The notes: a model not told the origin generated them from the sequence alone. Shown: positions 18,709 to 42,277, counted from the first letter of the stretch. The stretch: DNA of 64,000 nt from Candidatus Kerfeldbacteria bacterium (GCA_047946875.1 CP181398.1:777041-841040), one strand, 5' to 3'. Numbers and translations are program-made.

Positions 18709-18749
18709 AAAATTTTTTTAGTATCGATTGTTTATTTTTATTTGGTGAA

Positions 18750-18811: not shown

Positions 18812-18851
18812 ATGTTATCTCTTTCAAATGATTTTATAAAGTTTTCTAAGC

Positions 18852-18928: not shown

Positions 18929-18948
18929 AATATAAATAGTCCTATGAA

Positions 18949-19081: not shown

Positions 19082-19229
19082 ACATTATCTTAAGCGCTGA
19101 TACAAGATTTTTGATATTAAATTAATATTACCAATTCATCAAAAAAACCCTTTAAATACGTAATAATTGGTACAATTATACCACAAAAAAACAAAAAGTC
19201 AAGAAAAAATACCTACCTAAATCAATGCA

Positions 19230-21701
19230 TTACTTATCATCTTCAGGTGCAGAAAGATTACCTAAATCTGACGGTAAATCAGGAATATTTTTATCCTTCC
19301 TTACTTTAGTTTTTTTTGCTTTATCACTCTTTTTATTATTTTTCTTTACTGCTTTTTTTGTAACTTTTTTTTCAGCTGGAGGATTAACATCATTTTTATC
19401 ATCATCATTTGGATCTTTATCCATTACCACTTCTTCATCTTCAAGATGTATCTGCACATCTTTTTCATTCAAATGTTTAACGACCGTTTCTTCTTCACCT
19501 TTAACTTTCTTGTTAAGTTCTGCCGTAAAATGAATTGATCCACGATATTTTCCAATTGAAACTGTTTTACTATGGAAACTAGAATATCCTGATTTAACTA
19601 TAACTAAATAGTATTTACCAGATGGCAACAATGCATTAAATTGACCTCGTGAATTAGTAACTTTAGTAGCCACAACCATGCCAGTTTCTACATTATAAAT
19701 TCTGATAATTGCCATCTCAATTGGGTCTTCTGTATCCTTATCTTTAACTACACCCAAAGATTTACCAAGCCTCTTATTAATCAATGCTCTTAAAGCTAAT
19801 AATACTCCATAAAGGGATAAGATAACAAAATTACTTGTCTTTGGCTGTATAATTAAAGTACCCCAACTCAATAAAGTACCTACTATTAATAACGGTATAC
19901 TTATTTTTTCTAAGATATGACCAATATAACTAATAAATCTTAACCATTTTAATCTGCCTGGCGATATTGCTTTCATATTTGGATCTAACGGAATATTCAT
20001 CGCAAAAAATCCACCCTCTTTACCTTCAATTTCTAAAGTGTCCCCACGATAAACGTTATCATACTGACTAACAGAATCTGTCTTTAAGACATGGGATGGA
20101 AAGACATAACCAGGAGAACTAGCTGTAACAAAATATTTTCCTTTATCAATAATAAAACCAAATCTACCTTGACTATCAGCAATCTGACTTTCTTTTAACT
20201 TATTAAACTCACGGGTAAATATCTTGATAATAGCTCTAGGAATAGGTTTACCACTAATACTATCAAAAACCGTACCCCAAGAACGACGTTTTTTTCCTAA
20301 CATTATTGGTACAAGCCAGAAATATCCAAACCTGAAGAATAAATATAAAATATTATATATATTTGAGGTAGTGGCTACAACCAAAGCAATTCCAGTGGCA
20401 GCTATAACTGCTGAAGTTGCCATCACTGGTGTAACAACTGTTTCTACTACCTCGACAATCCCTTCATTATTTTTCAAAGATTTTAATGCATCGCCAATTG
20501 CTTCTGTAAAATCACGAATAGGTGCAGGTATAATACTATTAAAAGTATCTACTATTTTTTCAGCTAAAGGTTTTGCTAGTTCATCTATCTCTTCAATTAT
20601 TACACCTGGCTTAGCCTCTGGATCTATAATAATAAAACTATTACTAGCGCTCGTAGAATTACTCGCATTATCATAAGCTATAGCAGTCACTGAATGACTA
20701 CCTATTACTAATTCTGGTAAAGTAAATGGCGTAGTATCTCCAATATTAATTCCTACTGGATTACCTTGATCTGTTATTAAATCATAATGATGAATTCCTG
20801 ATGTATCGTCAGTAGTTTCAAAACTAATACGAGGATTTGTAACGGTAGTCCTTTTACCATCAAGTAATGTGATAGGAAAATTATTTGGAGGGGTTGTATC
20901 AATTTGTACTTTAAAGTGACTCGTAGGTCCCCAACCATCTTGATTTTGTGCACGAATATGGAAATACCATACTCCATCTCCAGTACCAACAAAACTAGTA
21001 GAGCTATCCGTAGTATCTACTATTTTGTCAGGGATATTCTCAGCCTGATCATCAAATGAAAAGCTATAACCAACATTATCATTCTCAGTTGACCATGAAA
21101 AAGATGTATCTGGATTTGCATACCAGGAATTCTGATCTGGGTGAGAAGATGAAGAAATAGTAGGTGTAGTAGGTAATTCTAAATCTGGTTCTGGGGGCTC
21201 TTCACCTGGCTCAGCAATAACATAAGTACCAGAGCCTGTACCACTCAACAAATCAGTGCCAACTGTAGCAGCTTCGTTGGACAGAACCAACGCTCCACCC
21301 ATCGTCGCATTTGCCGTCCCAGCTGACTTAGTTCTAAAACTAATTGTAAGCACTAAACCTGAAGTTCCATTATATCCACCTGCCAGACCACCTGGTAACC
21401 CGCCAGCGAATGTAATAGTACCACTAATATTTGAATAATTTGGAATTACTGGCCATAAAGTAAAAATACCACTACTAGAAACATTTGTTACTTCCAACAA
21501 GTTGGTCGGAAAAGATACTGTAGCCTGAGCAGCATTCATCGACTGTCCTCCAGAATTTACATATAATCCTACATTAAAACTATCACCAATCTCATATGAA
21601 GAATTTGAAGGACTAAAAAATAGAGTAGCTGCCTCAGCAATGTTAGGAGCAAACAATAAACCAAATATTAATAATATAGCAACAAAAATCTTTTTTGCCA
21701 T
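19230..21701 (-). CDS. Membrane-anchored surface protein. Domain order: N-terminal signal peptide, cohesin-like domain, FN3/Ig-like beta modules, TM helices, two carboxypeptidase-regulatory-like (transthyretin-fold) domains, K/D-rich C-terminal tail.
   Basis: ATG at 21701 (MAKKIFVAILLIFGLLFAPNIAEA) lies 8 nt after a GAGGG motif. The ORF track starts 22 codons upstream. The cohesin-like signature SFNVGLYVNSGGQSMNAAQATVSFPTNLLEVTNV is present, plus CarbopepD_reg-like stretches GKPIPRAIIKIFTREF...DSQGRFGFIIDKGKYFVTASSPGY and GMVVATKVTNSRGQFNALLPSGKYYLVIVKSGY. Confidence 0.6.
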   Translation of the reverse strand: MAKKIFVAILLIFGLLFAPNIAEAATLFFSPSNSSYEIGDSFNVGLYVNSGGQSMNAAQATVSFPTNLLEVTNVSSSGIFTLWPVIPNYSNISGTITFAGGLPGGLAGGYNGTSGLVLTISFRTKSAGTANATMGGALVLSNEAATVGTDLLSGTGSGTYVIAEPGEEPPEPDLELPTTPTISSSSHPDQNSWYANPDTSFSWSTENDNVGYSFSFDDQAENIPDKIVDTTDSSTSFVGTGDGVWYFHIRAQNQDGWGPTSHFKVQIDTTPPNNFPITLLDGKRTTVTNPRISFETTDDTSGIHHYDLITDQGNPVGINIGDTTPFTLPELVIGSHSVTAIAYDNASNSTSASNSFIIIDPEAKPGVIIEEIDELAKPLAEKIVDTFNSIIPAPIRDFTEAIGDALKSLKNNEGIVEVVETVVTPVMATSAVIAATGIALVVATTSNIYNILYLFFRFGYFWLVPIMLGKKRRSWGTVFDSISGKPIPRAIIKIFTREFNKLKESQIADSQGRFGFIIDKGKYFVTASSPGYVFPSHVLKTDSVSQYDNVYRGDTLEIEGKEGGFFAMNIPLDPNMKAISPGRLKWLRFISYIGHILEKISIPLLIVGTLLSWGTLIIQPKTSNFVILSLYGVLLALRALINKRLGKSLGVVKDKDTEDPIEMAIIRIYNVETGMVVATKVTNSRGQFNALLPSGKYYLVIVKSGYSSFHSKTVSIGKYRGSIHFTAELNKKVKGEEETVVKHLNEKDVQIHLEDEEVVMDKDPNDDDKNDVNPPAEKKVTKKAVKKNNKKSDKAKKTKVRKDKNIPDLPSDLGNLSAPEDDK

Positions 21702-21726
21702 AATATCTACCCTCTCTCTTATATTT

Positions 21727-22881
21727 TTAATCTTCTTTTTTTGGTTGTGAGCGAACTTTAAATGCAAGAAATAATAGTAGTAAGATAATTATACTTATAA
21801 CTATTATTAAAAATAATGAATAAACTGTATCATCTCCAAAAAATGGACTCTTATTTTCAAATGGAACTATACCTAAATTTTTCTGTGTATAATTACCAGC
21901 TCGATCAAATGCAGTGACTGTAATAAGATTACTTCTACTTTGATCTTCTAAAATATATGGTGATGTGACATGGGTTGTAGATTTGTCACCTTCTTTAACA
22001 TCATAATAGTCAATACCGGAGCCTTTGTCAGTGGTAGAAAAAATTAAAATATATTTTCCATCATACAAAGTTGGTTCTTTTGAAATAACTGTATCAATAT
22101 CTAATGGTGCCTTACTATCAATCATAGCTCTCCTCTTACCAATCACTTCCCAATCTCCATCACCTATTTTTTCTTTCAATATAAAATAATATACTCCATC
22201 AGCTAAATCAGAAAAATTGACTTTACCGGTCGTTGATTCTCTATTATTATCAGGTTCTTCATCTGAATAATTACTCAAAATATAACTATAGATTGCATCT
22301 TTCTTTTGCTCCCACTCAACATTAAAATTATTATTTTTATACCAAGTACTCTCTTCTGGATGAGTAGAAGATTCAATATTAATAAATGTTGTATCGCTTA
22401 CACTAAATATTCCTGAAATTTTATTTAATTCTACCTCTGTCCCCAATCCATCATTTAGTAAGACTTTTGTACTTTCATTATCAAAATCTACTTCACCAAC
22501 ACCTGGAATTTTTGTTTTGAAAGTAATTGTTGCAATCTTACCATCTAATACCATGCTACCGCCGGGAATTCCGCCAGCTAATGAAATAATTCCCGCTGAT
22601 TCCTCAACAATCGGTTCTTTTATCCATAAAGTTAAAAAAGAGCCCCCACGTGATACTTTAACAACTTCCAATAAATCTGTTGGATATGTTATTGTTGTTT
22701 TTACCGCATTAATAATTTCTTGCTCACTATTCAAATGTATTTCAGCTAAAAAAGTTTCCCCTTTTGCAAATTCTTTTTGTACGGGATTTACAGAAATTAT
22801 TGCAGCCTGAGCTTGACTGAAAAATATTACACCAAAAATAATTAGTGGTAATATGATTAAAGTTTTTTTGAATGTAAACAT
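21727..22881 (-). CDS. Secreted cohesin-like domain protein with FN3/Ig-like module and a C-terminal TM anchor; paralog of the N-terminal part of the 19230-21701 gene
   Basis: ATG at 22881 (MFTFKKTLIILPLIIFGVIFFSQAQA). The track's 22908 is a TTG start. Cohesin-like signature EIHLNSEQEIINAVKTTITYPTDLLEVVKV...ISLAGGIPGG parallels the neighbouring gene. C-terminal hydrophobic SLFLIIVISIIILLLLFLAF is followed by KVRSQPKKED. Confidence 0.55.
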   Translation of the reverse strand: MFTFKKTLIILPLIIFGVIFFSQAQAAIISVNPVQKEFAKGETFLAEIHLNSEQEIINAVKTTITYPTDLLEVVKVSRGGSFLTLWIKEPIVEESAGIISLAGGIPGGSMVLDGKIATITFKTKIPGVGEVDFDNESTKVLLNDGLGTEVELNKISGIFSVSDTTFINIESSTHPEESTWYKNNNFNVEWEQKKDAIYSYILSNYSDEEPDNNRESTTGKVNFSDLADGVYYFILKEKIGDGDWEVIGKRRAMIDSKAPLDIDTVISKEPTLYDGKYILIFSTTDKGSGIDYYDVKEGDKSTTHVTSPYILEDQSRSNLITVTAFDRAGNYTQKNLGIVPFENKSPFFGDDTVYSLFLIIVISIIILLLLFLAFKVRSQPKKED

Positions 22882-22895
22882 AATATTATAACAAT

Positions 22896-23807
22896 TTATT
22901 CTGTCCAATAAAATAGCATGATACTAAAGTCAACAATATTTACTATACCATCACTATTAATATCTGCTCTTTCATTAGCAGGATTTGCTGTATTCCAATA
23001 AAATAATAAAATACTAAAATCAACTAAATTCACAAAAGTATCACAATTAATATCCCCAGGTAATGCGCCATCACAAATATTTGGCTCATCAGCCGTTACA
23101 TTAAATATAACACTTTTACTAAATTCTGAGACCGCATCATTTACAGGTTCTATGGCTTGAGCCTTTGCCTCATGAGAGCCTTCTGCTAAATCATCAGCAT
23201 CATATAACTGTATCCATCTACCATTTGTATCAGCACTGGCTATACTTACTGCAATATGTTGTTCTCCAGCCGCAGCCCCGACCACTGGTGATGTTAATGT
23301 TACATTTACTTCACTATCAGGCACAGTAGTCCCTGATAAAGTAATAGTTTCACCACTAGAAATATTGGTTTGATCAGCTTCGATTGTCGGTCCTAAAAAG
23401 ATACCGCTGATCGTAGTAGTAGTACCTGTAGTTAAGGTTAATGTAAAATTTGATTGTTTACCCTCTAAACCATCTTGATCAAGACCAATCACAGAAAAGG
23501 TATAAGTGCCTGGATCAATAATTGCAGAAACTTCAAAGATTGCCTGAGATGTTGTAGAAATAATAGACAAAATTGATCCATCCTGACTAAAAGTCACAGT
23601 AGCAGATGGATAAGCTATCCCTCGAAATACAACTGTAGTATCTGGATCTTCTAATGGAGGTTCAGAAGCAACTGTAGCTGTAACAATAACCTGCTGAGAA
23701 GATTGTGCATCTACATAAGATACAACAGAATATCCCGCGACCAATAAGATCAGCGGGATAATCAGATATACAAAAAATTTAATTAAGTTAGGTCTTCTTT
23801 TTTTCAT
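22896..23807 (-). CDS. Secreted Ig-like/beta-rich protein with a C-terminal type-I dockerin domain
   Basis: 303 aa. N-terminal signal-anchor. The C-terminus carries two calcium-binding dockerin repeats: GDINCDTFVNLVDFSILLFYW and ADINSDGIVNIVDFSIMLFYW (D-x-N-x-D-G-x-V-N-x-x-D-F). Confidence 0.7.
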   Translation of the reverse strand: MKKRRPNLIKFFVYLIIPLILLVAGYSVVSYVDAQSSQQVIVTATVASEPPLEDPDTTVVFRGIAYPSATVTFSQDGSILSIISTTSQAIFEVSAIIDPGTYTFSVIGLDQDGLEGKQSNFTLTLTTGTTTTISGIFLGPTIEADQTNISSGETITLSGTTVPDSEVNVTLTSPVVGAAAGEQHIAVSIASADTNGRWIQLYDADDLAEGSHEAKAQAIEPVNDAVSEFSKSVIFNVTADEPNICDGALPGDINCDTFVNLVDFSILLFYWNTANPANERADINSDGIVNIVDFSIMLFYWTE

Positions 23808-23811
23808 TCAC

Positions 23812-24810
23812 CTATTTTTTTGCTTTTTTTATTATCCAAGCGTTATACTTTTTAAACAAGAATATTAATAATAATATCCCAAATACAATTACTATAAACC
23901 AGACTAATAATAAACGCCATGGCATGACCCAAAAAGTAACAGTTCCCGTATCTGAAACTATTTGGCTAGTTCCCGCGGTAATACTCAGAGTTGCTGTGTA
24001 TTTTCCAAAAGCAAAATTATCTTTTTCATTTCCAAATTCTTGCCAAAAGTCTGACCAAAAATTACCTGATACATTATCAACATTACCTTTTTCCCAAACA
24101 ATATCATATTTTCTGGTTGATTTTGGTAAAGTAGCACCTTTACTTGCATTGAAATCCAAAGTATCTGTAGTCTTACCAAATAAATTATTAATTTCTACAT
24201 TACCAACCGGTTTCAGATGAACATTACCAGTATTATTAAATCTAGAAACAAATCCTACAGGCAATCTATTAAACATTTTTTGACCATCTTCTACTATAAA
24301 TTCACTGATTGATCCCTGCTCATTAACATCACCCTCTACACTGGCCAAAATCAATGTACCAATTTTGGAGGCAACTTTAACCTGACCTTCTTCTGGTGCT
24401 GCTGAAGTAAAAAATAATGCTGCATAGTGACCACCTGGATCTGCATTTATCGGAGGATTAATAATAACCGAGACTTCATACCTTTCTCCAGATTCAATAA
24501 CAATAGGTCCTTCTTCGACATTCATCCAAGTACTTAAACCTATAGACTCAGTATTAAAGTCAAAATCAGGTTGACCAGTATCATCTTTTGCTGTGAAACT
24601 TCTAGCCTCTGTATAAAGCTCTATTGTTTCAGATGTTTCATTAAATAACTTAATAACTGTATTTACAGCTTGACCAGGTGTTAGACCTAATTCTAAAGTT
24701 GGAGGAATTAATGTGATTGCTTGAGCGGATGGAGCGATCCCAAAACCTATAATTGCAATAGCAAAAATAAACGCTATATAAATAATTTTCTTCTTAAAAT
24801 GTTGAAACAT
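23812..24810 (-). CDS. Secreted beta-rich cell-surface protein with C-terminal TM anchor (CscA/DUF916-like architecture, tentative)
   Basis: 332 aa. Signal peptide ending SAQA; conserved core ...PGGHYAALFF...KIGTLILASVEGD...; C-terminal LLLVWFIVIVFGILLLIFLF followed by KKYNAWIIKKAKK. Clear paralog of 24833-25768. Confidence 0.5.
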   Translation of the reverse strand: MFQHFKKKIIYIAFIFAIAIIGFGIAPSAQAITLIPPTLELGLTPGQAVNTVIKLFNETSETIELYTEARSFTAKDDTGQPDFDFNTESIGLSTWMNVEEGPIVIESGERYEVSVIINPPINADPGGHYAALFFTSAAPEEGQVKVASKIGTLILASVEGDVNEQGSISEFIVEDGQKMFNRLPVGFVSRFNNTGNVHLKPVGNVEINNLFGKTTDTLDFNASKGATLPKSTRKYDIVWEKGNVDNVSGNFWSDFWQEFGNEKDNFAFGKYTATLSITAGTSQIVSDTGTVTFWVMPWRLLLVWFIVIVFGILLLIFLFKKYNAWIIKKAKK

Positions 24811-24832
24811 TTTTTTTATTTTAACTAATTAT

Positions 24833-25768
24833 TTATTCTTGCTGTGGTGTCTCATTCTTACTAGATTTCTTAGACATTTTAATGATTAAAGCAATCAATA
24901 AAATTAATACTAGAATGATAACAATAACTATTACTATACCCGTAGTAGTCATTACCCAAAATTCAATAGCTTCCGTATCTGTTACAGTGCCGTCTGTCAT
25001 AGTCAATGTAGCTGTGAATTTACCAAAACCAGTAACATCCCAATTTGCAACTGCAAACTCTCTTACAGATCCTGCTAATATTGCACCTTTTTCGCTATTT
25101 ACTGCAATTGATTCAACGTCTTTACCAAACATATCTGTAATTACTACAGTACCAGCTGGTTTTATATGAGCTTCACCAGTATTTTTAAAACGTACTGCAA
25201 ATTTTACGGCACCATCAGAATAGTTTGTTTTATCTGAAGTAAAAGTAGCAATACTACCTGCTTCAGTATAATCTCCTGCTACAGTAGCCATGAATAGAGT
25301 ACCTAATTTTGACTCTATTAATAATTGACCGTCTTGTTGATCAGGTAATGTTTCATTAAAGAATACTGCTACATAATGTCCTCCAGCTGTTGCATTTGCT
25401 GGTGTATCAAAAGTCACAGTTACCTCTTGAGTTGCGCCAACTTTGATTGTAATAGGACCTTCATCAACATCTACCCAAGTAGCAATACCAGTTTGAGCAG
25501 CTTCAAAATCAAAAGCTGGTTGACCAGTCTCGCCCTCGGCAGTAAAATTGATTACTTCTGTTTCTAATTTTATCTCTTCTTGTGTGTCATTTTTTAGTTC
25601 TACGACTGCTACTGTCTTTTCTCCCGCCGTCAGATCAACCTCCATAATAGCGGGGGTAAGACCTAAAGCTGATACCTGTGAAGGTACAACCAGCAAAGCA
25701 GCGAAGAACAGAGTAGTGATTCCTAGAAAAATAGTTTTTTTAAACATATATTCTATTTTATTAATCAT
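24833..25768 (-). CDS. Secreted beta-rich cell-surface protein with C-terminal TM anchor; tandem paralog of 23812-24810
   Basis: 311 aa. AGGAGGGG Shine-Dalgarno upstream of the ATG at 25768. Collinear with the neighbouring gene (GETGQPAFDFEAAQTGIATWVDVDEGPITIKVGATQEV...AGGHYVAVFF...KLGTLFMATVAGD). C-terminal IVIVIVIILVLILLIALII followed by KMSKKSSK. Confidence 0.5.
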   Translation of the reverse strand: MINKIEYMFKKTIFLGITTLFFAALLVVPSQVSALGLTPAIMEVDLTAGEKTVAVVELKNDTQEEIKLETEVINFTAEGETGQPAFDFEAAQTGIATWVDVDEGPITIKVGATQEVTVTFDTPANATAGGHYVAVFFNETLPDQQDGQLLIESKLGTLFMATVAGDYTEAGSIATFTSDKTNYSDGAVKFAVRFKNTGEAHIKPAGTVVITDMFGKDVESIAVNSEKGAILAGSVREFAVANWDVTGFGKFTATLTMTDGTVTDTEAIEFWVMTTTGIVIVIVIILVLILLIALIIKMSKKSSKNETPQQE

Positions 25769-25835
25769 TAATATCTACTCCCCTCCTAATTGTTCTTAAA
25801 TGAATATTTAAGTGAGAGTAAAAAATTTAGTTAGC

Positions 25836-26852: not shown

Positions 26853-26969
26853 AAGTTTTCTTTATTAATTAACTTATTTTATTAATTTATTAATATTACT
26901 TTATTATTATATCATACTTTTTAAGAAATTGCAACCTAATATATAAATTTTACCACAATATTACAGCTA

Positions 26970-32900: not shown

Positions 32901-35900
32901 ACCCTCAATGTTCCAGGTTCCAGTGCCGGTATTAATCGTGTTAGTAGACGCTCCGCAGGAGAAATTGCCACCAACGTCTAAACTGACATTATTATCAGCA
33001 CCATCAATCGTTACGCTGTTAGTCCCGTCACCAATTGTTAGGTTATTATTTATATCATTAGCGAGAGCAGAAGCATACTCAAATGTGTATGATGGTGAAC
33101 CTCCTGACGGTATTAATTCTAAGTTATAGTAAGATCCTCCAGATCCATCTCTGGCAATGTCTGTATCCCCAGTACCGGTGTACTGAAAAGTAGAAGTATT
33201 TCCTATTAACCTCCCCTCGTTAAAAAAAGGCATAGTCTCATCAGTAGTACCAGATCCTGAAAGAATCCATGTTTTTTCACCGGCATCCAATGTATGAAAT
33301 CGTTCTATTACCTCACAAAAATCCCAGGTTGTGATCAGCTGATTGGTAATGGTCATACTGCCAGTCCCAATAGCCGTCGTAGTATATTCACCACATGGAA
33401 GTTGCGTAAAAGAGAGATTATAAAATGTCCAGTTGCTGTCTCCGCCTATAGTCCCATCCGTAGACAAGGTTACCGTACCGCCGGTCATATTGACCGTACC
33501 ATCACCAGTCAGGTTACCACCGTGAACAACCAGAGAGCCAGTACCTTGCACGGTGGCACCGGTATCCACATACTGATTACCACCAGTGCCTGACGTGGTC
33601 ACCCCACCACCCGGATCATAGGTATCACCAGTCCAAATATGCAATTCAAATTCTGAATCAATAGTCACGTTATTTGAATCAACCTTAAACTTAATATCGC
33701 TATCACCTGTATCCCGATCGCCTGACTCAAGATTGGTGTTGGTAATAGACGCTCCAGTATCATTCCTGACAATGACTGCGGCCGCGTACACATCAACATC
33801 AGCTGTATCAGTTCCGTCAACCTTGAATGCAGTTGTTCCTTCATAGGTGCCGTGATCATCCAGGTAAATAGTGACAATATCTCCGCTTGAGGATGCAATA
33901 CTGCCGACTGAATAATCCCCATTGCCATCCGTAGTACCAAAATTCATATTATTACCATTAACATTCACCTGAACTAATATGCCAGAACCGGCATTCGTTG
34001 ACTTATTCTCCTGATACACCGTGCCACCAATGGTAATAATATCGCTAAAAAGCCAATTCGTATTGTTTCCACAATGAGTATTAGTCCCGTCATCAGCATC
34101 AATTTGAAAACCAGTATCTGTTGCATCAGACCGCGACACATCCACATACGAAACCACACTAGTATTAGCTACATCCAGAAGCCATGTGCCGGAAGTAAGG
34201 TTTGAATTTCTAAATACAATATCATTACCGGAAGAACCAGTCCAATCAATATTAGTGAACGCATATGTAGATCCAGAATTATATTCCACTTTTACGTTAT
34301 CATTAACGGTAAAGGTGCCGGTAGCTGTAGCTGCGGCCGCAAAATCAATACCAGGGGTAAATGAAGTAGCACAGCCAGAAACACTTCCAGTGGTATTAGT
34401 AATGGTCAGGTTATAAAAATCAGAGGAACCGGTCATCGTACCCGATAAGGTCTGTTGCACGGTACCGGCCAAAACGACTGTCCCGCTGTTGTCAGTAAAC
34501 GTGCCGTTATTGGTATAATCGCTCTTTAAAGTTAGGCTAGTACTGCTTGGCGCGGAAAAAATCGTATTAACGCCAATAGTGATAGTCTTGGTAAAATTAA
34601 TAGTTGGATCGTTTGTATTCAGATCAAAAGTAGTGGCTCCAGTTCCGCCCTGTATCAGTTCCAAGTCTCCATAAACATTATATGTACCCGCTGCTGATGT
34701 GACCGTATTAGAAGAGTTATTACCATATATTTCAACATACAGATAATCACGAGCTGACATCGTTTGGCTGTTGCTTGACGAATCAAAACGCACGATAATA
34801 TTAGTTGCAAATGCTCCTGTTGTTGGGAATGCGGCTGATGGTTGGTAGACCAAAGTGCCATTACCCATCACGTAGCCGTCGAAAGTAAATGATCCCGTAC
34901 TCGTTACAGTCAAAGAACGATCTATACTAATATACAAAAAATCATTAGTGTTAACGTCAAGCGTACCGGTAACGATAGGATCATCAGTGCCCTCTATTGA
35001 TACTGTACCTGCAGATCCATCACCAATAGTAAGATTATTAAACGTGGTATCACTTGAGCCATTTATTGCAGGAGAGCCTGTCATGGTAACGGTACTTGTA
35101 CTTGCTGTAAAGGTGCCATTATTATCCCAATTACCATCCAAGCTATATGTATTAGCTCCATCTGAGGCAAGTGTGCCATCAATACTAATAGTAACATTAT
35201 GCGCGTTCATCGTTCCTGCGGAATCCATAGTTAATGTATCATCAGCCAAAATATCTATGGTGTCGTCAGCATACGCACCATCTTCATCCACATTCAATAC
35301 ACCCGCATTGGCAGTATGCATGATATTGCCATTTTGATCATTATCATAAGAGCCCAGCTGGGTAACAGTTAATGTCACTCCAGTATCAGCACTTCCAACT
35401 GACAATACGTTCTGATTTAGTACCATGCCGGTAATATCATCCGCACCGTCATACTCTGTAACAGCAGTAGATTGATCCCCATCTGTCGCTGTGTCAATGA
35501 ATACGGTTATTACTTCTCCTCCTGACAAAGCTGGGTCCGTATCAACATTCCAGGCACTTGCGCTTATTACGAAACTATCAGCTTGCAACACACCATTGAC
35601 TGCAATTTTCACCGTACCGGAAGAATTTGATGAACCTGCAACATTTGTATTAGATGAAGGAAAAGTCCAAGCAGTATTATTGCTACAGTCGGTGTTAGTA
35701 CCGTCATCAGCATCAATATCCACACCGGGAGTAGCATCAGACCATGACACGTCCACATAGGAAACAACACTTGAGTTGGTCACATCCAAATCCCAAGCGG
35801 ATGAGCCCGTTGAACCTTTGAAGTAGATTTCATTTCCAGATGAACCCGTCCAATCAATATTAGTAAATGCGTAGGTTGATGTGGAATTGTACTCTACGTT

Positions 35901-38900
35901 TGCATTGTCATTAACCGTGAAAGTACCTGTAGCCGTAGCAGCATCAGCGAACACAATGCCAGCAGTAGTAAATGATGCGCAGCCCGTGACAATTCCGGAT
36001 GTATTTGTGACAGTCAAATTATAAAAAGATTCTGAGTCTGATGTTATGGTTTGTGTTGATGAACCATCCAAGACAACCGTATTTCCACTGGTGGCAGTAT
36101 ATGTCCCGTCTGTAAAATCAATGGCTCCAGATACAGTCCACATACCTGTTCCAGAAGTTATAATCCCAATTCCAGAACCACCACCACCATAAGCTAATAC
36201 ACTTGTAATATTTACTGTTGGGTTGTACGTTCCGCCGTCAAGAGTAATATTTTGCGTATTTTGCGCCGAGACATACAAGGAATTCGAAAAATTTAGAGTT
36301 TGACTTGCACCAGTACCTAACATAACTGTACGTGCATTGGTGGTGCTATTATTGTACACCTGAACCTGATGGCCATACGTACGCTGTGACAATATTTGAT
36401 CATTAAACGTAGCGTCCATCCTGAGCGACGATGAAAGCGTTCCAGTCGTAGGGAAAGCTGATGAAGGCTGATATGCAAAAAGTCCACCTCCTGAAATCGT
36501 ACCATCAAGCGTGAGTGAACCCGCATTACCAAGCGTAACAATATTTGAAACGCCAAGTGATAATGTATCACCCGAGTCTATATCAAACGTACCCGTAACA
36601 GTTGGATCTTCAGATCCACCCACTGTTACTGTCCCTGCGGTCCCATCACCAATAGTAAGATTATTAAATGTAGTATCACTAGCGCCATTTATAGAAGAAG
36701 TTCCTGTCATAGTGACTGTACTTGTATCAGCTGTGAAGGTACCGCCATTAGTATAATCTCCTGCAATACTTATAGCACTAGATCCTGCAGTAAACACGGC
36801 ACTACTATTAATAACTAAATCCCCTCCAATAGAAAGGGCTTCATTAGTGGTACCAAATGTTTGAGAACCGTTAATAGTTAAATCATTCGCAACATTGAAT
36901 CCCAAAGAATTCACATCAATAGTCGTAGTATCTGCAATCACAATATTATAGAAACTTACACCGGCCTTACGAATATCAATTCCTCCTACTGAATTATCAT
37001 CATCAATAATAAAAGTTCCCCCTGATATAGTGCCCCATCTAGCCAGCGCTGTATTCGACAAATTTATCTCCTCTGTGGTAATTGTACCTGATCCGGTCAT
37101 GGTAAAATCAAGACCTGTGTCATTTGGAGCCATATAAAAATATCCGGAAGGACCTACAGAATGAGTACCACCATTGAAATTGAAATCACCTTCATTTATT
37201 ACCCAGTATCCAACTTCCGTAACTACAGACCCTGCATTCAGATTTAATACACTTGTTGCCCCGTCAAGAGTAACTCTATCTAGAATATCCACATCAGCGC
37301 TACCACTTATTGTTGCCGTACCACCAGTCAATATAAAATCATCACCAATATCCGTGGTACCACCACTGATATTCACCGCACCTGATGTCATATTTAAATC
37401 TTCTGTAGTGCTATTACCAATTATAAAAGTTCCAGCGGTATGATTCAGAGTCCCTCCACTTACCAAAACTTCATTAGCTTCTACGATTGTAGAATTTTGT
37501 ACATGAAGCGTACCTCCGGATGGAACATCAATATCTCCAGCAATAACATTACTAATCGTATCAAGATAAGCAGTCCCTCTGACATCAAAATCTCCAGTTA
37601 CACTAGTCGTAGTAATCCTACCATTTGGATCAAAAGTATGACCAGTATATACAAAAAGTTGAATCCCTGTCTCCACAACCAAAGTATCAGTTATTGCATC
37701 TATAGCATCATAAAGCATATCTACTGAGTTTTGGTCATTATCATATGCATCCATATCGTCAACATTTATACTGGTTCCTTGCTCATGCCTCACCATTACC
37801 GTATTTTGATATATTCTCAAATTATCTCCGGTAACTATATCCCCTCCGTCACTAACAGTAACCGTATTACCCAATATTGATCCGCCGTCAATATAAAATG
37901 TCAGCTGGTCTCCTGCGCTGGTAGTAACTCCGGTAATGGAAAAATTACCACTAGAATCGGTTGCATCACAATCTCCGCCCGCAGTCGCATTTACAGCCAC
38001 ACAAACACTAGTACCTGTAGTAATTGGGGTTCCTTCAGTATCATCAGTATAAGCTATACCATCAAAATCATAGCCACCGCCACCACCGCCACACGATGTA
38101 CATTCAGCTAATATAAAATTAGTTTGAAGTGGATCATGCGCGGGGGCATTATATCCAGACAATGTAATATCATGCTTATGACCAGCTGTTGCAAATTGAC
38201 TACCTGCGCTTGCACTACCATCTATACCTGCTGAATCTCCTGAAGTCCCAACTGTATTTGAATGAGCAACTCCAGCACTACCACTAGTAGTACCTGAGCT
38301 ATCTGCTGTTTGGATATATCTGTTTTGATAAGGACTAGTGTTAGAGATAGTAGTCCAACCAGTTGGTGGGGTTCCGTCAAATAGAGCAATCATCCCAATA
38401 GGAACAGATGGTGGTGTACCATTTTGCTCATATAATTTAAGAGTTACATATTCAGGTACTGATGTAGCACTAGCCGTAGTAGTAGGAGTGCTAGGTGCAG
38501 CATGAGTATGAACTATTGCATCATGGACATTGGGAGTAATTCCTGAAAATACACCGACACTACCTGAACCAGCGTTAAGAGACCCCCAGGTAACTCCGTG
38601 TGTATGAGTATCACTTCCACCGGTCGTATGTGATGAGTCAAGTTTCACTAAGCGACTATCGGCCGCTGAAAAACGTACCCAAGGACTAGATGGTTCTGAT
38701 CCAGTCTTAAAAAAAGCGAAAGCATCAAGCGGTATAGTGCTTGGCGTGGAATCAAGTGAATCATAACGATAAAGATAATATGTATAATGTGCCGGATTAT
38801 TATCAGCAGCTGCCACAGTAGTAGTATTAGCTGTATGAGTATGAGCTCCTGTCGATATCAACGTACATCCTCTTCCACATATAGTATCTGGACCCGTACT

Positions 38901-41270
38901 ACTTGATCCACTACCAACGCCCGTAGAGAAAGTATGACTATGAGTTGCCGCGCCACCACTAGTAGAAAATGCAGATGCTCCTCTTACAAAATCACCATCA
39001 TAGGTTGTAATATTAGTCCAACCAGCTCCTGGCGTAGAATCAGCACCTAATAAATATAAATAAGTTGCATCAATAGCCATCTGCCATTGTCGTCCTTCAT
39101 CCCAAGTATCTCCTACTGAAGCTGGTCCTACAAAATAAAGAGCTGGACTTTCTTCTGGAGTTTTAAAATTATAAGTTACTTCTATAGATTCCCCTGCCTT
39201 AATAGTTCTATTCCAAGATAAGGTATTTAATATTTCTGTACCCGAATCATATTTACCCAAAGAAGCATCACCATAATCTTTTAATTCATAATCACTGTTC
39301 ACAATTTCTTTAATTTCACCAACGATATCTTCATAAGCAGTAACTTTTAATGTCATTGGTTGATATATGTAAGGAAATACCCTAGTTGGACCATCTCTCT
39401 GGATTGTAAATCTTGGCGATTCTTTGATTTGAAAAGTATCCGATATCGAATTGGTACCATTATAATGAGTAGCGGTAACATTAATTTGATAAGTTCCTGG
39501 AACATCGGTTGTATAAGTAGCAAAATAATCAGGTCCATGATATTCACCCTTAATCTGGCAAAATTCACTAATTGTTATAGTTCCATCAGCTGTTTTTTTT
39601 GTTATTACATTTCCATTTGGATCAATAATATCTAACACAACATCAGCATTACAAACTATGTCACCTGCATGATCTAGAACACCAATTGAAAAAAGTGTTT
39701 CCTGACCTATTTTTTGAATAGCAAAGTCAGGATTAATAGCTAATACCCCCCAAGTAAAGTCTTGTATTATTTCCTTTATCACACCTTCCTGGTCAATAAT
39801 CATTTTGACCTGATATTTGCCTGGTTTATCAAATTTCGCGTTATCAAATGAATATTTATCAGTTTTTATCTTACCTTTATCAACCTTTTCTACTGTGTAT
39901 GTTGCCTCAATAACCTCTCCTTTTGGATTTAATAATTGTATATCAGTCACTACTCTTTGTTTTGGATCAACTCCCAAAAATGCAAAAGATGATTCTTCTT
40001 CTACATCAACTTCAATTATAGGTTTTTCATTTACCGTCAGATCATTGTCTTCGATAGTAACACTTTGTTCTATTTCTGCTACCACTTTTTCAGCTTCTTG
40101 TAACTCAATGTCAAAAAATAGTCCATCTAAATATGCCGTTGATTCTTCTGCCCCTGGAACAGCATTATAATCTAATTTAACTTGAAACTTATTAAATTCT
40201 TCTAATTCATAGATATTATCAATATCAACTTTAAAATATCCCTCATTGGTTGCATTACTCACTTCTTCATAAAGAGAAATTGATCTAGCAATCTGCCAAG
40301 TATCTCCATCATCAACAGAATATGATAAAATTACCACATCTTCATTATCGGGAAATGTATCCGCAGCAAATGAGACATATAGTGAAATTCTGGTGATCAG
40401 CGCTGTATCTAACACAGAATCTGGAATGCTATATCCCCAAGCCTTGAAAATATTATTTTGATTCGGTACTACCAACTCTGGCTCAGCAATTTCTACAACT
40501 ATATCTTCTACTTCAGTGGCAACTTCAATCTCCTCAACTAGAGGATCTGGTTTCTCAATAATTTCTATTATAGTTTCTTCTGGTTCAGTTGTAGTATCTT
40601 CAATTGGCACTTCTGGTAAATCATTAACATCTGAAGTAACAACTTCATCTATCGTACCTACTGGAATAATAATTTCGTCTTCCTCTCCCAATACTTGAAT
40701 TGGCTTGTTGTTAAAAAAAGCAGAATTATCTTTTGTGAAATTATTTTTAGGAGAGTTGGATAATAAATCTACCTTCTTAGCATTTTCTGCACTCATCCAA
40801 CCGCTTACTTCTGTTGGCTCTAAAATAATATTATAAATTTTAGATGAGTTTTCATCCGCTTGGACCATAAATATATATGTAAAAAAAGTTACCTGAATTG
40901 TTAAAAATGCAAAAGCAACTAGCGACACCGAGTAAATAAAGACGGAAAACTTTTTACTGATCCATAATAATTTTATTTTTTCAAAAGACCAACCAGGTTG
41001 AATAACATACTTACTTACTTCTGGCTCAGGTAATTTTTCTTTATCATTTTCATTTCCAAAGTTTGATTTTTTAGAAGAAGGTAGTAATTCCAAATACAAT
41101 TTTTCTACTGTTTCATTTTCATATCGTCTATCTTTTCTTACTCCGATTCTTACTGCTTTTAATTTTCCCGTTTTATCCCAATTCCGGAGTGTGTTTGGAT
41201 GAATACTAAAGATCTTACTGACTTGATCAATAGTCAATAAAGTAGGCAAAGACTTAAAATTAACCCCCAT
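26970..41270 (-). CDS. Giant (~4766-4784 aa) cell-surface protein. Domain order: N-terminal MerR/excisionase-type HTH, TM signal-anchor, acidic linker, Ig-like domains, phage-tail-collar-like HxH modules, >3000 aa of T/G/N/S-rich beta-helix-type repeats in four large modules, C-terminal ~150-aa domain shared with the 338-aa protein.
   Basis: One uninterrupted 14.3-kb ORF. The track start at 41324 is TTG; the first ATG is 41270 (MGVNFKSLPTLLTIDQVSKIFSIHPNTLRNWDKTGKLKAVRIGVRKDRRY = HTH_17-like). The only TM segment is FSVFIYSVSLVAFAFLTIQVTFFTYIFMV, 110 aa further on. The module-terminal motif ...YTF.NIDW.GSSGN...SYVDV...GTNT..NN..W.F recurs four times. Confidence 0.8.
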   Translation of the reverse strand: MGVNFKSLPTLLTIDQVSKIFSIHPNTLRNWDKTGKLKAVRIGVRKDRRYENETVEKLYLELLPSSKKSNFGNENDKEKLPEPEVSKYVIQPGWSFEKIKLLWISKKFSVFIYSVSLVAFAFLTIQVTFFTYIFMVQADENSSKIYNIILEPTEVSGWMSAENAKKVDLLSNSPKNNFTKDNSAFFNNKPIQVLGEEDEIIIPVGTIDEVVTSDVNDLPEVPIEDTTTEPEETIIEIIEKPDPLVEEIEVATEVEDIVVEIAEPELVVPNQNNIFKAWGYSIPDSVLDTALITRISLYVSFAADTFPDNEDVVILSYSVDDGDTWQIARSISLYEEVSNATNEGYFKVDIDNIYELEEFNKFQVKLDYNAVPGAEESTAYLDGLFFDIELQEAEKVVAEIEQSVTIEDNDLTVNEKPIIEVDVEEESSFAFLGVDPKQRVVTDIQLLNPKGEVIEATYTVEKVDKGKIKTDKYSFDNAKFDKPGKYQVKMIIDQEGVIKEIIQDFTWGVLAINPDFAIQKIGQETLFSIGVLDHAGDIVCNADVVLDIIDPNGNVITKKTADGTITISEFCQIKGEYHGPDYFATYTTDVPGTYQINVTATHYNGTNSISDTFQIKESPRFTIQRDGPTRVFPYIYQPMTLKVTAYEDIVGEIKEIVNSDYELKDYGDASLGKYDSGTEILNTLSWNRTIKAGESIEVTYNFKTPEESPALYFVGPASVGDTWDEGRQWQMAIDATYLYLLGADSTPGAGWTNITTYDGDFVRGASAFSTSGGAATHSHTFSTGVGSGSSSTGPDTICGRGCTLISTGAHTHTANTTTVAAADNNPAHYTYYLYRYDSLDSTPSTIPLDAFAFFKTGSEPSSPWVRFSAADSRLVKLDSSHTTGGSDTHTHGVTWGSLNAGSGSVGVFSGITPNVHDAIVHTHAAPSTPTTTASATSVPEYVTLKLYEQNGTPPSVPIGMIALFDGTPPTGWTTISNTSPYQNRYIQTADSSGTTSGSAGVAHSNTVGTSGDSAGIDGSASAGSQFATAGHKHDITLSGYNAPAHDPLQTNFILAECTSCGGGGGGYDFDGIAYTDDTEGTPITTGTSVCVAVNATAGGDCDATDSSGNFSITGVTTSAGDQLTFYIDGGSILGNTVTVSDGGDIVTGDNLRIYQNTVMVRHEQGTSINVDDMDAYDNDQNSVDMLYDAIDAITDTLVVETGIQLFVYTGHTFDPNGRITTTSVTGDFDVRGTAYLDTISNVIAGDIDVPSGGTLHVQNSTIVEANEVLVSGGTLNHTAGTFIIGNSTTEDLNMTSGAVNISGGTTDIGDDFILTGGTATISGSADVDILDRVTLDGATSVLNLNAGSVVTEVGYWVINEGDFNFNGGTHSVGPSGYFYMAPNDTGLDFTMTGSGTITTEEINLSNTALARWGTISGGTFIIDDDNSVGGIDIRKAGVSFYNIVIADTTTIDVNSLGFNVANDLTINGSQTFGTTNEALSIGGDLVINSSAVFTAGSSAISIAGDYTNGGTFTADTSTVTMTGTSSINGASDTTFNNLTIGDGTAGTVTVGGSEDPTVTGTFDIDSGDTLSLGVSNIVTLGNAGSLTLDGTISGGGLFAYQPSSAFPTTGTLSSSLRMDATFNDQILSQRTYGHQVQVYNNSTTNARTVMLGTGASQTLNFSNSLYVSAQNTQNITLDGGTYNPTVNITSVLAYGGGGSGIGIITSGTGMWTVSGAIDFTDGTYTATSGNTVVLDGSSTQTITSDSESFYNLTVTNTSGIVTGCASFTTAGIVFADAATATGTFTVNDNANVEYNSTSTYAFTNIDWTGSSGNEIYFKGSTGSSAWDLDVTNSSVVSYVDVSWSDATPGVDIDADDGTNTDCSNNTAWTFPSSNTNVAGSSNSSGTVKIAVNGVLQADSFVISASAWNVDTDPALSGGEVITVFIDTATDGDQSTAVTEYDGADDITGMVLNQNVLSVGSADTGVTLTVTQLGSYDNDQNGNIMHTANAGVLNVDEDGAYADDTIDILADDTLTMDSAGTMNAHNVTISIDGTLASDGANTYSLDGNWDNNGTFTASTSTVTMTGSPAINGSSDTTFNNLTIGDGSAGTVSIEGTDDPIVTGTLDVNTNDFLYISIDRSLTVTSTGSFTFDGYVMGNGTLVYQPSAAFPTTGAFATNIIVRFDSSSNSQTMSARDYLYVEIYGNNSSNTVTSAAGTYNVYGDLELIQGGTGATTFDLNTNDPTINFTKTITIGVNTIFSAPSSTSLTLKSDYTNNGTFTDNSGTVVLAGTVQQTLSGTMTGSSDFYNLTITNTTGSVSGCATSFTPGIDFAAAATATGTFTVNDNVKVEYNSGSTYAFTNIDWTGSSGNDIVFRNSNLTSGTWLLDVANTSVVSYVDVSRSDATDTGFQIDADDGTNTHCGNNTNWLFSDIITIGGTVYQENKSTNAGSGILVQVNVNGNNMNFGTTDGNGDYSVGSIASSSGDIVTIYLDDHGTYEGTTAFKVDGTDTADVDVYAAAVIVRNDTGASITNTNLESGDRDTGDSDIKFKVDSNNVTIDSEFELHIWTGDTYDPGGGVTTSGTGGNQYVDTGATVQGTGSLVVHGGNLTGDGTVNMTGGTVTLSTDGTIGGDSNWTFYNLSFTQLPCGEYTTTAIGTGSMTITNQLITTWDFCEVIERFHTLDAGEKTWILSGSGTTDETMPFFNEGRLIGNTSTFQYTGTGDTDIARDGSGGSYYNLELIPSGGSPSYTFEYASALANDINNNLTIGDGTNSVTIDGADNNVSLDVGGNFSCGASTNTINTGTGTWNIEGNVDLTNCDTFTATSGHTLVMDGVTPSLTAAGKSLYDFETSGTGTITLADALTTNGDVTVGTGTTLTGSNDLTANGGDITGDGVITMTGGTVTVGLPAAGNIGGNSSTWTFYDLYFDIIGACSGDRILSATGSGDIKITNTLARDTCAGAGDDVWFAKLSAAAGGAKTWEMSGSGTPITSMVIVNKTTEDSTFKFTNTGSVTVSGGGSFDNLSLDPDSGGTYDISGDISVYGDLYIKADLTDLIEGTGEVIMHGADNTIDVGGETFYDFKLDSASDVAISVINTDFTISSAYGNFGAGGTLSIGAGRTVTHTGSTFANLGTVEGAGTLRFTDTSAGPGTGGTINSIVRYDASAGNIANTTFDARTYGGDVELYGSNSSNSITAASGSYPISGDLILIQDGTGATTVDLNTNDPSLVVSGDVSIDTATTLSASSSSTLDINGNYTNNGTFTDNNGTVVLAGSSTQSLSGTMTGSSDFYNLTITNSGGTVDFGAAVETENNYTITTAGVTVEYEAGSTYTFPNINWAGSSGVGNEITFQSSTTSDWNLVVTGTQTDVSYIDVKYSYACGGDWIDASNGTNTDSGNNDCWIFDGITLTGTIYSDDGISVYDCSADPLTVHAATNGGTASEYECDSAGGTFTIPATDPTAGGDPIVLYIDNSETPHATTATLAADISSNISGLNLYQNRMIVRHENAGPMTNAKLLTGDNADAGIRYAVIAGALTTESGMELHAWTGDTFDPGGMVTTDATGGNLHIDDNATVHLDTATSIIGLDIDIDANATLNVSADATVNGDNITSAGNINVTAGTLTIGNGTTEDLIINGGTNSFSGGTVDVKDNFYVNGGTATIASAVTVAGNIWQEAGTLNFNTGANVDVTGALNMRGSNSQITNFNDGSVDVGTNINLNQGIITLAGGTVRASTVADGAIELARHNDGGETVTFNMTGGTLTGRSFIVYNEKPLTTTTVTGGTIVIDDPSGASSAQGQVYQWSDDAPEFYNLQISRGTVGTPCLLSNDASQQLLVLKGNYTLDSGIYFDAQGEAMEVQGDWTNNSGNFTPGTGSVTLTGENVASHDINGLGDTTFYDLTIGDGATTNTITVDTDTGADDPLVSNTLDVDTGDSLAIETSRTVTWTGSGFTLDGTISGAGRLTINSGTTIPTAGTLSSLVRFDTSNGNTTTMPARTYGSDVEIFNDDNSTPYTITPLATATQDIDGNLYIIADGTQNVTFAGVTNNPAFDIEGDFDFIGADDGSEIITSGTGTWTVSGNVNFTDGTYTATSGNTLVMNGTGTLTSASQTLQNLTLSGSVTLANATHTMAGNLDMTGGTVTAGTSTIDMTGATKTVTSASQTLQNFKVSGTGSVASADAMDVNGTFDIADTGVFTQEVDSNLNAAGNFTLASGTTFNNATAGTGELILDGDLTFTDNTSPQQDVGNLEIGTSPDTTDLASDLLAKTLTINDGDILNTNGYDLDIGLGGITISTDAGSGGGTLDVDDDVETDGTQMNTDGKFDLQSGASLLNSAGTNVGSTLTFNIPSSVSDITSDLITAGTGSLYNLVIDDGAGTYNLIVEVEDPLVVLNNVTITNGHLDAVSGENNAITVGGSWDNDDIFLCRSGTITFDATSGSPTIDSTGATTDDFNDITFDDTGNNITFTLESILDINNDLLITGGTLDVKSGEDNAIYLAGDWTNNDNFTDQSGTVYLDGSSQQILSGQMTGTSDRFYNLTITNAGASDPDVDFAAAADVDNNFTADTANTQLEFNAGSTYTFNNVSFNGTSGNLVTLRSSTPGTQWNLTSDGTQIVTYTDVQDSYACGGDTIDATGGTNVNSQNNDCWLFVGMTVSLSPNSIDLGTLLESLVSQDGVTLTVSTDASNGYQASVYYDNSLTSIGNTIADTTGGTIVAGTEEYGASSSRSGYDIGIWSPTSCADTGTTSNATALTTSLQTFAGATGVVSTHQTELCILGSISGLTDAGAYTSTITIVATSLY

Positions 41271-41484
41271 TTTTTTTGGGTGCTTATTTTTTTTACCTAG
41301 TTTAAACACTTTAAATATATGCAAAACTTTTTTATTATTTTAGCTTTGCTTAAGTTAGCAAAAAATTTAACTTAACTTAACAAACATAACAAAACTATTA
41401 TATAATATTATTATGATTTTGTCCAATAAAAATAACTCTCATCATCTTTATAAATGATTCGAATGATTTAAATTATGATTAAAC

Positions 41485-42195: not shown

Positions 42196-42277
42196 AATAT
42201 TGGCATTTTAGCATAACTAATACCCCTTTTCAACTTTGACCTAAGCTGATTTTTTTATTATAATATAATAAGTTTAT

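Follow-up and report, generated by a model that had tools for sequence, protein, structure and literature searches.

Filaments of the Candidate Phyla Radiation (CPR) bacterium Candidatus Mycosynbacter amalyticus were found by cryo-electron microscopy (cryo-EM) to consist of PamA and PamB, with the linker of one subunit completing the C-terminal domain of the next (bioRxiv 10.64898/2026.03.03.709456). The Pam operon also encodes two PapD-like chaperones, PamC and PamD, which retain a C-terminal membrane helix, a tip subunit of one domain, PamT, and PamR, an RbmA-like terminator anchored in the membrane; the preprint deals mainly with Saccharimonadia and Microgenomatia and does not mention cohesin, dockerin, WxL or DUF916 (bioRxiv 10.64898/2026.03.03.709456). 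In the WxL or cell-surface-complex (Csc) clusters of Lactobacillales, a hairpin strand of the WxLIP protein is predicted to complete the β-sandwich of the WxL domain (PMC10599100). Here, we present the analysis of a 64,000-nucleotide stretch of DNA from Candidatus Kerfeldbacteria bacterium (GCA_047946875.1 CP181398.1:777041-841040), referred to as the window, in which seven consecutive minus-strand open reading frames (ORFs; positions 19230-41324), named g1 to g7 in transcription order, show similarities to both systems. We consider it probable that this cluster is a Pam-type donor-strand-exchange pilus operon with a giant acceptor-only tip and a dockerin-cohesin base. Our confidence is higher for the Pam-type pilus than for the model as a whole, and lower for the docking step.

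The candidate shaft pilin, g2, comprises a signal peptide, an N-terminal β-sandwich (residues ~30-173), a linker and a C-terminal domain (residues 190-338). NCBIfam holds three Pam models, namely NF058578 (PamR), NF058579 (PamT) and NF058581 (CPR_Pam_pilin_C), and the last of these was matched by g2 over profile positions 3-148 of 148 (E=1.1e-10), as well as by 35 of 45 diverse g2 homologues. Modelling of g2 with AlphaFold2 (pLDDT 90.7) placed strands in residues 35-173 and 190-336 and left residues 174-189 unpaired. As modelled, g2 agrees with the two-domain design of the Pam pilin, i.e. an N-terminal sandwich, a single linker strand, then the C-terminal domain. The linker lies within one of the best-conserved stretches of the family, with the consensus DDQVxVSATVDPT. 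Both the conserved linker strand and the homologous C-terminal domain with its paired cysteines are features common to g2 and the Pam pilins. A phmmer search of g2 against PDB sequences found nothing, and the g2-family profile returned only chance antibody matches, with neither WxL nor Pam entries; since no Pam entry was returned, the Pam structures have apparently not been released yet.

A preliminary description of this DNA, made from the sequence alone, had noted that the last ~150 residues of the giant protein g1 are shared with g2. The comparison bore this out, as residues 4637-4784 of g1 and residues 190-338 of g2 showed 70% identity (E=3e-58), and the last 142 residues of g1 also matched NF058581 (E=9.9e-8, profile positions 3-148 of 148). 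No donor motif of the form [VI]x[VI]x[AG]x[VI] was detected ahead of the C-terminal domain of g1, and the motif was also missing at this place in 30 of 31 homologous large proteins from other genomes, whereas the pilins carry it. Having an acceptor domain and no donor strand, g1 could therefore only start a fibre and would form its distal tip. This follows the logic of chaperone-usher pili, where an acceptor-only subunit such as FimH or PapG enters first and ends at the distal tip.

The complementary arrangement was found in g5, which consists of a signal peptide, a donor-like strand, a Pro-rich linker, Ig-like domains and a dockerin, and which lacks a pilin acceptor domain. Its mature N-terminus follows the same V-x-V-x-A-x-V alternation as the g2 linker. 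In 99 of 120 g5 homologues, the strand motif immediately followed the signal peptide, and the motif combined with a Pro-rich tail occurred in 35 of 48 short g5 homologues, as compared to 18 of 455 background ORFs, which are unrelated and come from the same loci (18-fold enriched). With a donor-like strand and no acceptor domain, g5 would therefore end growth and cap the base. Some longer g5 relatives (444 aa in the related locus L001, 437-460 aa in others) start with a complete N-terminal pilin domain and its donor strand, after which come Ig domains and, where the acceptor domain would sit, a dockerin. A PamR homologue in another locus, L003, begins similarly to g5 (ATVVVTAAANGPLPP) yet ends in a membrane helix, and hhalign of the g5 family against this homologue aligned the N-terminal strand alone, at a non-significant probability of 4.6%.

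The acceptor-only tip, the donor-and-acceptor shaft and the donor-only terminator have counterparts in the chaperone-usher pili (archaic Csu, class 5 CFA/I), where they correspond to FimH/PapG, FimA/PapA and PapH, respectively. The homologies, domain assignments, fold predictions, motif placements and conserved order of the genes reported here are the basis from which we infer every protein-protein contact, the order of assembly, the formation of a fibre and a role in host attachment. The fibre would be assembled by donor-strand exchange outside the membrane of a monoderm-like CPR cell, independently of sortase and usher. All seven proteins would first be exported via Sec and cleaved at their AxA sites. 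The membrane-tethered g3 and g4 would then hold the C-terminal domains of g1 and g2, whose Ig-like fold is incomplete, by lending them a strand, a chaperoning role suggested by their predicted fold and their homology. The fibre would be started by g1, which would thereby take the distal tip position and act there as an adhesin or stalk of 4,600 residues, and g2 subunits would join serially, each linker strand (DDQVVVSADV) filling the groove of the previous subunit. The N-terminal strand of g5 (QQVIVTATV), which comes without an acceptor, would end growth, and the C-terminal dockerin of g5 would plug into the cohesin-like domain of g6 or g7, fastening the fibre to the envelope. Such a system would differ from chaperone-usher pili in its independence of an usher on a monoderm-like cell, in the membrane tether of its chaperones, in the donor strand being an inter-domain linker, with an N-terminal extension only in g5, and in the proposed anchoring via cohesin-dockerin. 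A sortase pilus was considered and rejected: the LPxT[GAN] motif was found in none of the seven proteins, and no sortase family was among the Pfam matches listed at E<=1. Likewise, no usher family was among the Pfam or NCBIfam matches listed for the seven proteins at this threshold. The Pam system also lacks usher and sortase, resides in CPR hosts and has Sec signal peptides on all of its parts. The coordinates of the features are collected in Table 1.

Table 1. Genes and elements of the g1-g7 locus in window coordinates, with the donor and acceptor elements of the candidate pilus subunits.
Feature	Position	Strand	Length or residues	Description	Donor strand	Acceptor domain	Proposed place
g1	26970-41324	-	4784 aa	giant protein, candidate pilus tip adhesin	no	yes	tip, first in
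g1 helix-turn-helix	41094-41240	-	29-77	HTH_17 E=3e-5; predicted cytoplasmic			
g1 hydrophobic segment	40863-40952	-	125-154	ends VQA/DE (hydropathy scan, sequence reading)			
g1 C-terminal domain	26973-27416	-	4637-4784	Pam-pilin-type acceptor domain			
g2	25836-26852	-	338 aa	candidate shaft pilin	yes	yes	shaft
g2 linker	26286-26333	-	174-189	IIADDQVVVSADVEPT; candidate donor strand			
g3	24833-25768	-	311 aa	candidate membrane-anchored PapD-like/WxLIP-like chaperone			
g4	23812-24810	-	332 aa	second candidate chaperone, g3 paralogue			
g5	22896-23807	-	303 aa	candidate base/terminator subunit	yes	no	base, last in
g5 mature N-terminus	23667-23699	-		QQVIVTATVAS; donor-strand look-alike directly after VDA/Q site			
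g5 dockerin	22899-23060	-		PF00404 32.4 bits, cut-off 22.9; two Ca-binding-type repeats			
g6	21727-22908	-	393 aa	candidate membrane anchor with cohesin-like domain			
g6 cohesin-like domain	22396-22806	-	~35-171	PF00963 23.5 bits in isolation, cut-off 24.1			
g7	19230-21767	-	845 aa	second cohesin-bearing candidate anchor			
g7 cohesin-like domain	21213-21632	-	~46-185	ectodomain paralogous to g6			
Signal peptidase I	18058-18708	-		PF10502, E=6e-46			

All seven ORFs that the preliminary description had listed on the minus strand are present, and its statement that they encode only exported or surface proteins agrees with the hydrophobic N-terminal segment followed by an AxA-like site that hydropathy and sequence reading identified in every one of them. 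A C-terminal transmembrane helix with a basic tail was found in g3, g4 and g6. The tandem genes g3 and g4 encode paralogues (39% identity, E=1.5e-67), as had been described, and g4 carries an extra insert of ~25 residues relative to g3 in the alignment. Two paralogous PapD-like chaperones, each with a C-terminal transmembrane helix, are likewise part of the Pam system.

The AlphaFold2 model of g3 (pLDDT 85) comprised two Ig-like domains and a C-terminal helix (residues 275-303). In a Foldseek search with this model, ranks 1 and 2 were taken by Enterococcus faecium WxLIP (PDB 9i1y and 9i25, which comprise WxLIP by itself and in complex with a long WxL protein; E~7e-10), followed by the chaperone-usher chaperones CsuC, CfaA, Caf1M, DraB and PapD (E~1e-9 to 1e-6) and also by RbmA. 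The chaperone fold is thus shared with CsuC, CfaA, Caf1M and PapD. PF06030 (WxLIP_PGBD, formerly DUF916) was matched by 8 of 18 members of the g3/g4 family (best E=5.5e-9), and the sole match of the family profile in the PDB was EfmWxLIP1 (E=7e-5). When the family was aligned by hhalign to a WxLIP set of three sequences from Lactobacillales plasmids, a probability of 97.8% was obtained (E=1e-12) over 251 columns spanning both domains. Judged by these profile comparisons and by the predicted fold, g3 and g4 are clear homologues of the Firmicute WxLIP/DUF916 proteins, and their earlier assignment as CscA/DUF916 proteins holds. The likeness to WxLIP (DUF916, DUF3324 and a transmembrane helix) extends over both domains and includes the same C-terminal helix.

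The family is also of the PamC/PamD type. In locus L003, three g3-family genes (E=1e-44 to 1e-57) adjoin a g2-like pilin and the PamR homologue (NF058578, E=2.5e-56). This PamR-type locus further contains a PGA_cap-domain protein between the pilin and chaperone genes (L003 positions 11398-12993) and, upstream, a small protein with a peptidoglycan-binding-like motif (7603-8016). The chaperone family as a whole comprised 19,183 clusters at 50% identity (E<=1e-3).

The WxLIP homology also brings up a static surface complex of the WxL/Csc type, in which g3 and g4 permanently hold the small and the giant protein and no polymer is formed. Such a complex would draw on g3 and g4 being true WxLIP homologues, on the strand by which WxLIP is predicted to complete the WxL sandwich, and on the gene content, since a small and a large protein with a common C-terminal domain plus a transmembrane DUF916 protein make up the canonical WxL cluster (PMC10599100). 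In both the WxL clusters and this locus, one small and one very large secreted protein have a common C-terminal β-sandwich, which is predicted to be completed by a WxLIP-like strand. The shared domain of g1 and g2, however, could not be matched to WxL. No Pfam WxL model was matched by any of the 45 g2-family members at E<=1, hhalign of the domain against six WxL domains (local and global) gave a probability of 0.1%, and a shuffle-controlled hmmsearch was non-significant for four of the six WxL sequences. The domain contains no Trp-x-Leu motifs, of which WxL domains (PF13731 in the preliminary description) have two, and no WxL chain was present among the structural neighbours of g2. It matches instead the Pam pilin domain, whose relatives form filaments in cryo-EM. 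A static complex would moreover leave unexplained the conserved donor-type linker of g2, the donor-only design of g5 and the acceptor-only g1, and a CscD-like LPXTG protein, the partner found in Csc clusters, is absent among the seven proteins. Further differences are that WxL proteins are described as peptidoglycan-bound and not filamentous, and that the pilin here has a donor strand and an extra N-terminal domain, with a terminator and cohesin anchors added to the set. We therefore regard the static complex as unlikely.

The Csc analogy drawn in the preliminary description is half right: it stands for the WxLIP-type g3 and g4, while the proposed WxL domain at the C-terminus of g1 and g2 gave way to the Pam pilin domain. 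Collinear motif resemblances between the shared domain and WxL were observed (NGYxSxV and GWxLxV; terminal YTxTxTL and YxTTLTW), and are only a lead. Because the chaperones are homologous and the cluster designs run parallel, a distant kinship of the two domains is plausible. The completion of the WxL sandwich by the WxLIP hairpin is itself strand complementation of the chaperone type. In the library searched, no paper was found that connects WxL clusters to donor-strand or chaperone-usher mechanisms.

The N-terminus of g1 departs from that of the other proteins, as it consists of 120 residues predicted to be cytoplasmic and a membrane segment, rather than a short signal peptide. The helix-turn-helix (HTH) within this region is of the MerR/excisionase type; it scored 24.3 bits against MerR_1, above the cut-off of 21.6 bits, and also matched a BldC-type HTH (E=5e-6); it is in frame with the remainder of the ORF, with no stop codon between. 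An N-terminal HTH with a membrane segment resembles bitopic proteins such as RodZ. This N-terminus, together with a promoter-like site between g1 and g2, would suit an independent giant envelope or S-layer-like protein that is anchored N-terminally with its HTH in the cytoplasm, the other genes encoding a separate small pilus and the shared C-terminal domain being merely a chaperone-binding or wall-association module. Three observations make this distinctly unlikely in our view. The hydrophobic segment ends at a site of the signal-peptidase type; the N-terminus differs in the large homologues from other lineages, where an HTH is not evident and two of the proteins show a long basic region, a membrane segment and then an AxA-like site; and the acceptor-only C-terminal domain is kept beside a pilin gene in at least 31 loci. 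The segment at residues 125-154 of g1 is predicted to be a signal anchor or a cleavable signal, its VQA/DE end fitting signal peptidase I. If cleavage takes place, each export of a giant protein would leave behind a small HTH fragment tethered to the membrane. Relatives of the part of g1 that holds the HTH and the transmembrane segment were sought in metagenomes, and none could be confirmed.

The giant protein g1 is rich in Thr, Gly, Ser, Asp and Asn, and self-BLAST detected no internal repeats at E<=1e-5. The core (28000-38000) has a G+C content of 40-46%, as against 30-35% in the flanks. A foreign origin of the core need not be invoked, because this G+C content fits its Thr/Gly/Ser/Ala/Asp-rich composition.

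Dockerins and cohesins are modules known from cellulosomes, and a dockerin and cohesin-like domains occur at the proposed base of the Pam-type pilus. The dockerin of g5, correctly recognised in the preliminary description, is of type I with two DxNxDGxVNxxD-type repeats (DINCDTFVNLVD and DINSDGIVNIVD), and PF00404 was found on nearly all of 120 g5 homologues among the matches listed. A dockerin protein has been reported as essential in the Saccharibacterium Southlakia (PMC10633639). The candidate anchor g6 consists of a signal peptide, a cohesin-like domain, two further β domains and a transmembrane helix at its C-terminus. It is related, at 30% identity (E=8e-32), to the N-terminal ~350 residues of g7. 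The latter continues into a polytopic membrane region (several internal hydrophobic segments), two CarboxypepD_reg domains, as had been claimed (PF13620, 64.5 bits in two stretches, passing the threshold), and a Lys-rich tail; g7 orthologues occupy the same position in other loci (836 aa in L002, 740-840 aa in L005-L012). The cohesin-like domain of g6 and g7 is placed distal to the two further β domains, on a membrane anchor. Of seven homologous N-terminal domains, taken from the window and from two related loci, six matched PF00963 (best E=4e-8), and the best PDB sequence match of the g6 domain was a scaffoldin cohesin (E=0.07). The cohesin-like domains announced in the preliminary description are present, with that of g6 borderline.

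Since g5 lacks a C-terminal transmembrane helix or any other membrane segment, binding of its dockerin to the cohesin-like domains of g6 and g7 would be the simplest reading of how it is anchored, i.e. by non-covalent fastening. By analogy, this plug and socket would in effect replace the transmembrane helix of PamR. An anchor for the pilus base is a better reading of the cohesin-dockerin pair than the earlier one, in which it would dock other proteins as a second layer.

The same modules could point to a cellulosome-like scaffold for glycan harvesting or enzyme display, with the giant protein binding the substrate. Besides the type I dockerin with its two Ca-binding-type repeats and the cohesin-like β-sandwiches on cell-anchored proteins, the CarboxypepD_reg domains are in keeping with this, as they often accompany carbohydrate-active or outer-membrane proteins. 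Searches of Pfam and NCBIfam, however, identified a catalytic domain in none of the seven proteins, for which reason the enzyme scaffold was rejected; the glycan-harvesting role suggested earlier is likewise unsupported, because the cluster encodes no enzyme. In addition, the sole dockerin is carried not by an enzyme but by a 303-aa structural protein that also bears a donor-like strand, each anchored protein has a single cohesin and a multi-cohesin scaffoldin is absent, the dockerin gene is embedded in a pilin-chaperone operon across 80 loci, and nothing in the window indicates that the organism is a fibre degrader. We hold such a scaffold to be very improbable. In six loci (L031, L049, L056, L065, L072 and L076), proteins of 561-598 aa matched both the dockerin-cap and the cohesin profiles, and these may be adaptors that chain cohesin-dockerin links.

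At least 548 species-level genomes hold a g5 relative, and 80 loci with the g5 family were recovered from species-representative genomes. The order of a large protein with the C-terminal domain, a pilin, one or more chaperones, a dockerin protein and one or more cohesin proteins was found in most of the 80 loci, showing that the block is strongly conserved as a unit in related genomes, so that the refuting condition set on this point in the preliminary description does not apply. In 68 of 71 loci the gene next after that of the dockerin protein encodes a cohesin, in 54 of 72 the one immediately before it encodes a chaperone, and in 34 of 55 a pilin-domain gene lies upstream of it, a count that probably misses divergent pilins because the profiles were built from this subfamily. 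In 31 loci, a large same-strand ORF in a g1-like position ends in a pilin domain; within the locus, the lengths of these ORFs run from ~700 aa to above 3288 aa, most being cut by the locus edge, and the largest called gene encodes 9711 aa.

The record titles of the loci include Kerfeldbacteria, Parcubacteria/Paceibacterota, Kaiser-, Nealson-, Nomura-, Moranii-, Portnoy- and Falkowbacteria, as well as Spechtbacterales, Minisyncoccales and Saccharibacteria. Many operon-bearing records of metagenome-assembled genomes (L005, L006, L010, L016, L057, L003/L004 and others) bear non-CPR titles, such as 'uncultured Gammaproteobacteria', 'Pirellulales', 'Aminicenantia' and 'Limnocylindria'. These are probably mislabelled or mis-binned contigs, and a taxonomic spread based on titles needs care. 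The CPR origin of the window itself, which the preliminary description had raised as a condition, is confirmed, as NCBI places Candidatus Kerfeldbacteria in the Parcubacteria group of Patescibacteria.

Several points weigh against the proposed Pam-type pilus. The matches of g2 (41.8 bits) and of the g1 tail (32.2 bits) to the Pam pilin model are below the curated NCBIfam cut-off of 55 bits, and NCBI would for this reason not automatically name them as Pam pilins. As the scores of the g2 homologues are also under 55 bits, the proteins therefore represent a divergent branch. Both the PamR and the PamT equivalogs are absent from the window: NF058578 had zero matches at E<=1 in any window protein and NF058579 only weak partial ones (E=0.02-0.5). 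The structural neighbours of g2 were mostly generic Ig-like folds. The g6 cohesin-like domain is just under the Pfam threshold (23.5 against 24.1 bits; E=0.0018 for the whole protein). Pilin linkers and g5-type strands from the same locus were slightly more alike than shuffled pairs (4.53 and 4.16 of 7 positions, respectively; p~0.004, 30 loci), with the excess identity at groove-facing positions; this speaks for the proposed role of g5, but the co-variation test is weak and ignores shared ancestry. If the membrane segment of g1 is not cleaved, g1 would stay tethered and could not be a free tip. Finally, the Pam pili themselves are known from one preprint.

The locus also differs from the Pam operon in its parts. 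PamT is small and has a single domain, whereas the candidate tip here has 4,784 residues; the terminator has neither a transmembrane helix nor similarity to PamR and ends in a dockerin; two cohesin-bearing membrane proteins are added; and the lineage is Kerfeldbacteria, with scores under the NCBIfam cut-offs. The view that the system had not been described needs to be corrected in part, as its core is known from the 2026 preprint on Pam pili and from the NCBIfam models, whereas the preprint contains no giant tip, no cohesin-dockerin base and no WxLIP link.

The seven proteins are presumably exported via Sec and cleaved at their AxA sites, and the signal peptidase I encoded in the window may process these signal peptides. 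Its gene was said to lie immediately downstream of the cluster; it is actually found 521 nt beyond g7, with a promoter-like site between (19202-19175), and is probably a separate transcription unit. In L001, too, a signal peptidase I gene follows the operon downstream; in L002 it does not. Both g6 and g7 are annotated with TTG starts, which are probably too far upstream, and ATG codons at residues 10 and 23 precede their signal peptides.

Sigma-70-like sites on the minus strand were observed upstream of g2 (26906-26934, TTGCAA-17-TATAAT with an extended TG) and of g1 (41397-41425, TGGACA-17-TATAAT), so that the shaft pilin could have its own promoter. Counts of promoter- and terminator-like matches showed no excess over shuffled sequence in 18000-27100, which holds the g2 site, and were above shuffles in 41200-42400, upstream of g1, where promoter-like matches reached ~2x the shuffle mean. 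Taken singly, the promoter-like sites ahead of g2, of g1 and of the peptidase gene are no more than suggestive.

The upstream flank (41485-43762) encodes a family 2 glycosyltransferase (GT2) on the minus strand and a LytR-CpsA-Psr wall-polymer ligase on the plus strand, and a GT2 gene adjoins the operon in L001 too. These neighbours raise the possibility of a tie between wall glycopolymer attachment and the pilus. A second giant ORF is located at 5308-15252 on the minus strand (3314 aa), and BLAST found no kinship between it and g1. It begins with a T4SS_pilin domain (PF18895, E=2e-11), followed by Big_5, Big_7, Big_13, sortilin-like and DUF6242 domains; it is unusual for a type IV secretion pilin to be fused to so large a surface protein.

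The lifestyle proposed for CPR bacteria is one of attachment to host cells, by mechanisms that are largely unknown, and their genomes contain many giant genes without an assigned role. The identification of Pam pili dates only from 2026 and concerns a single cultured Saccharibacterium, and the related operon described here belongs to an ultra-small organism of the Parcubacteria group. Its genes can be read as an assembly scheme made up of tip, shaft, cap and socket, in which the giant protein would be placed at the tip of the fibre and the cohesin-dockerin module familiar from cellulosomes would be a candidate fastening. With at least 548 genomes holding relatives of the cap and ~19,000 chaperone clusters, the dockerin-type pilus is likely a major surface structure of the CPR. 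The homology of the chaperones with WxLIP joins two systems that have been studied separately, and chaperone-style strand donation provides a mechanistic hypothesis for the virulence-associated WxL clusters. More tentatively, and with somewhat less than even confidence, we propose that much of the CPR radiation possesses a modular pilus in which a giant adhesin of up to ~9,700 residues is the first donor-strand-exchange subunit, in which a dockerin-cohesin fastener replaces the membrane helix or a covalent wall link, and whose machinery is sister to the Firmicute WxL/WxLIP clusters. If the machinery is indeed sister to these clusters, WxL proteins would also use chaperone-type strand complementation and may polymerise. 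If the modular pilus is real, it would provide a role for many of the unexplained giant genes of CPR bacteria.

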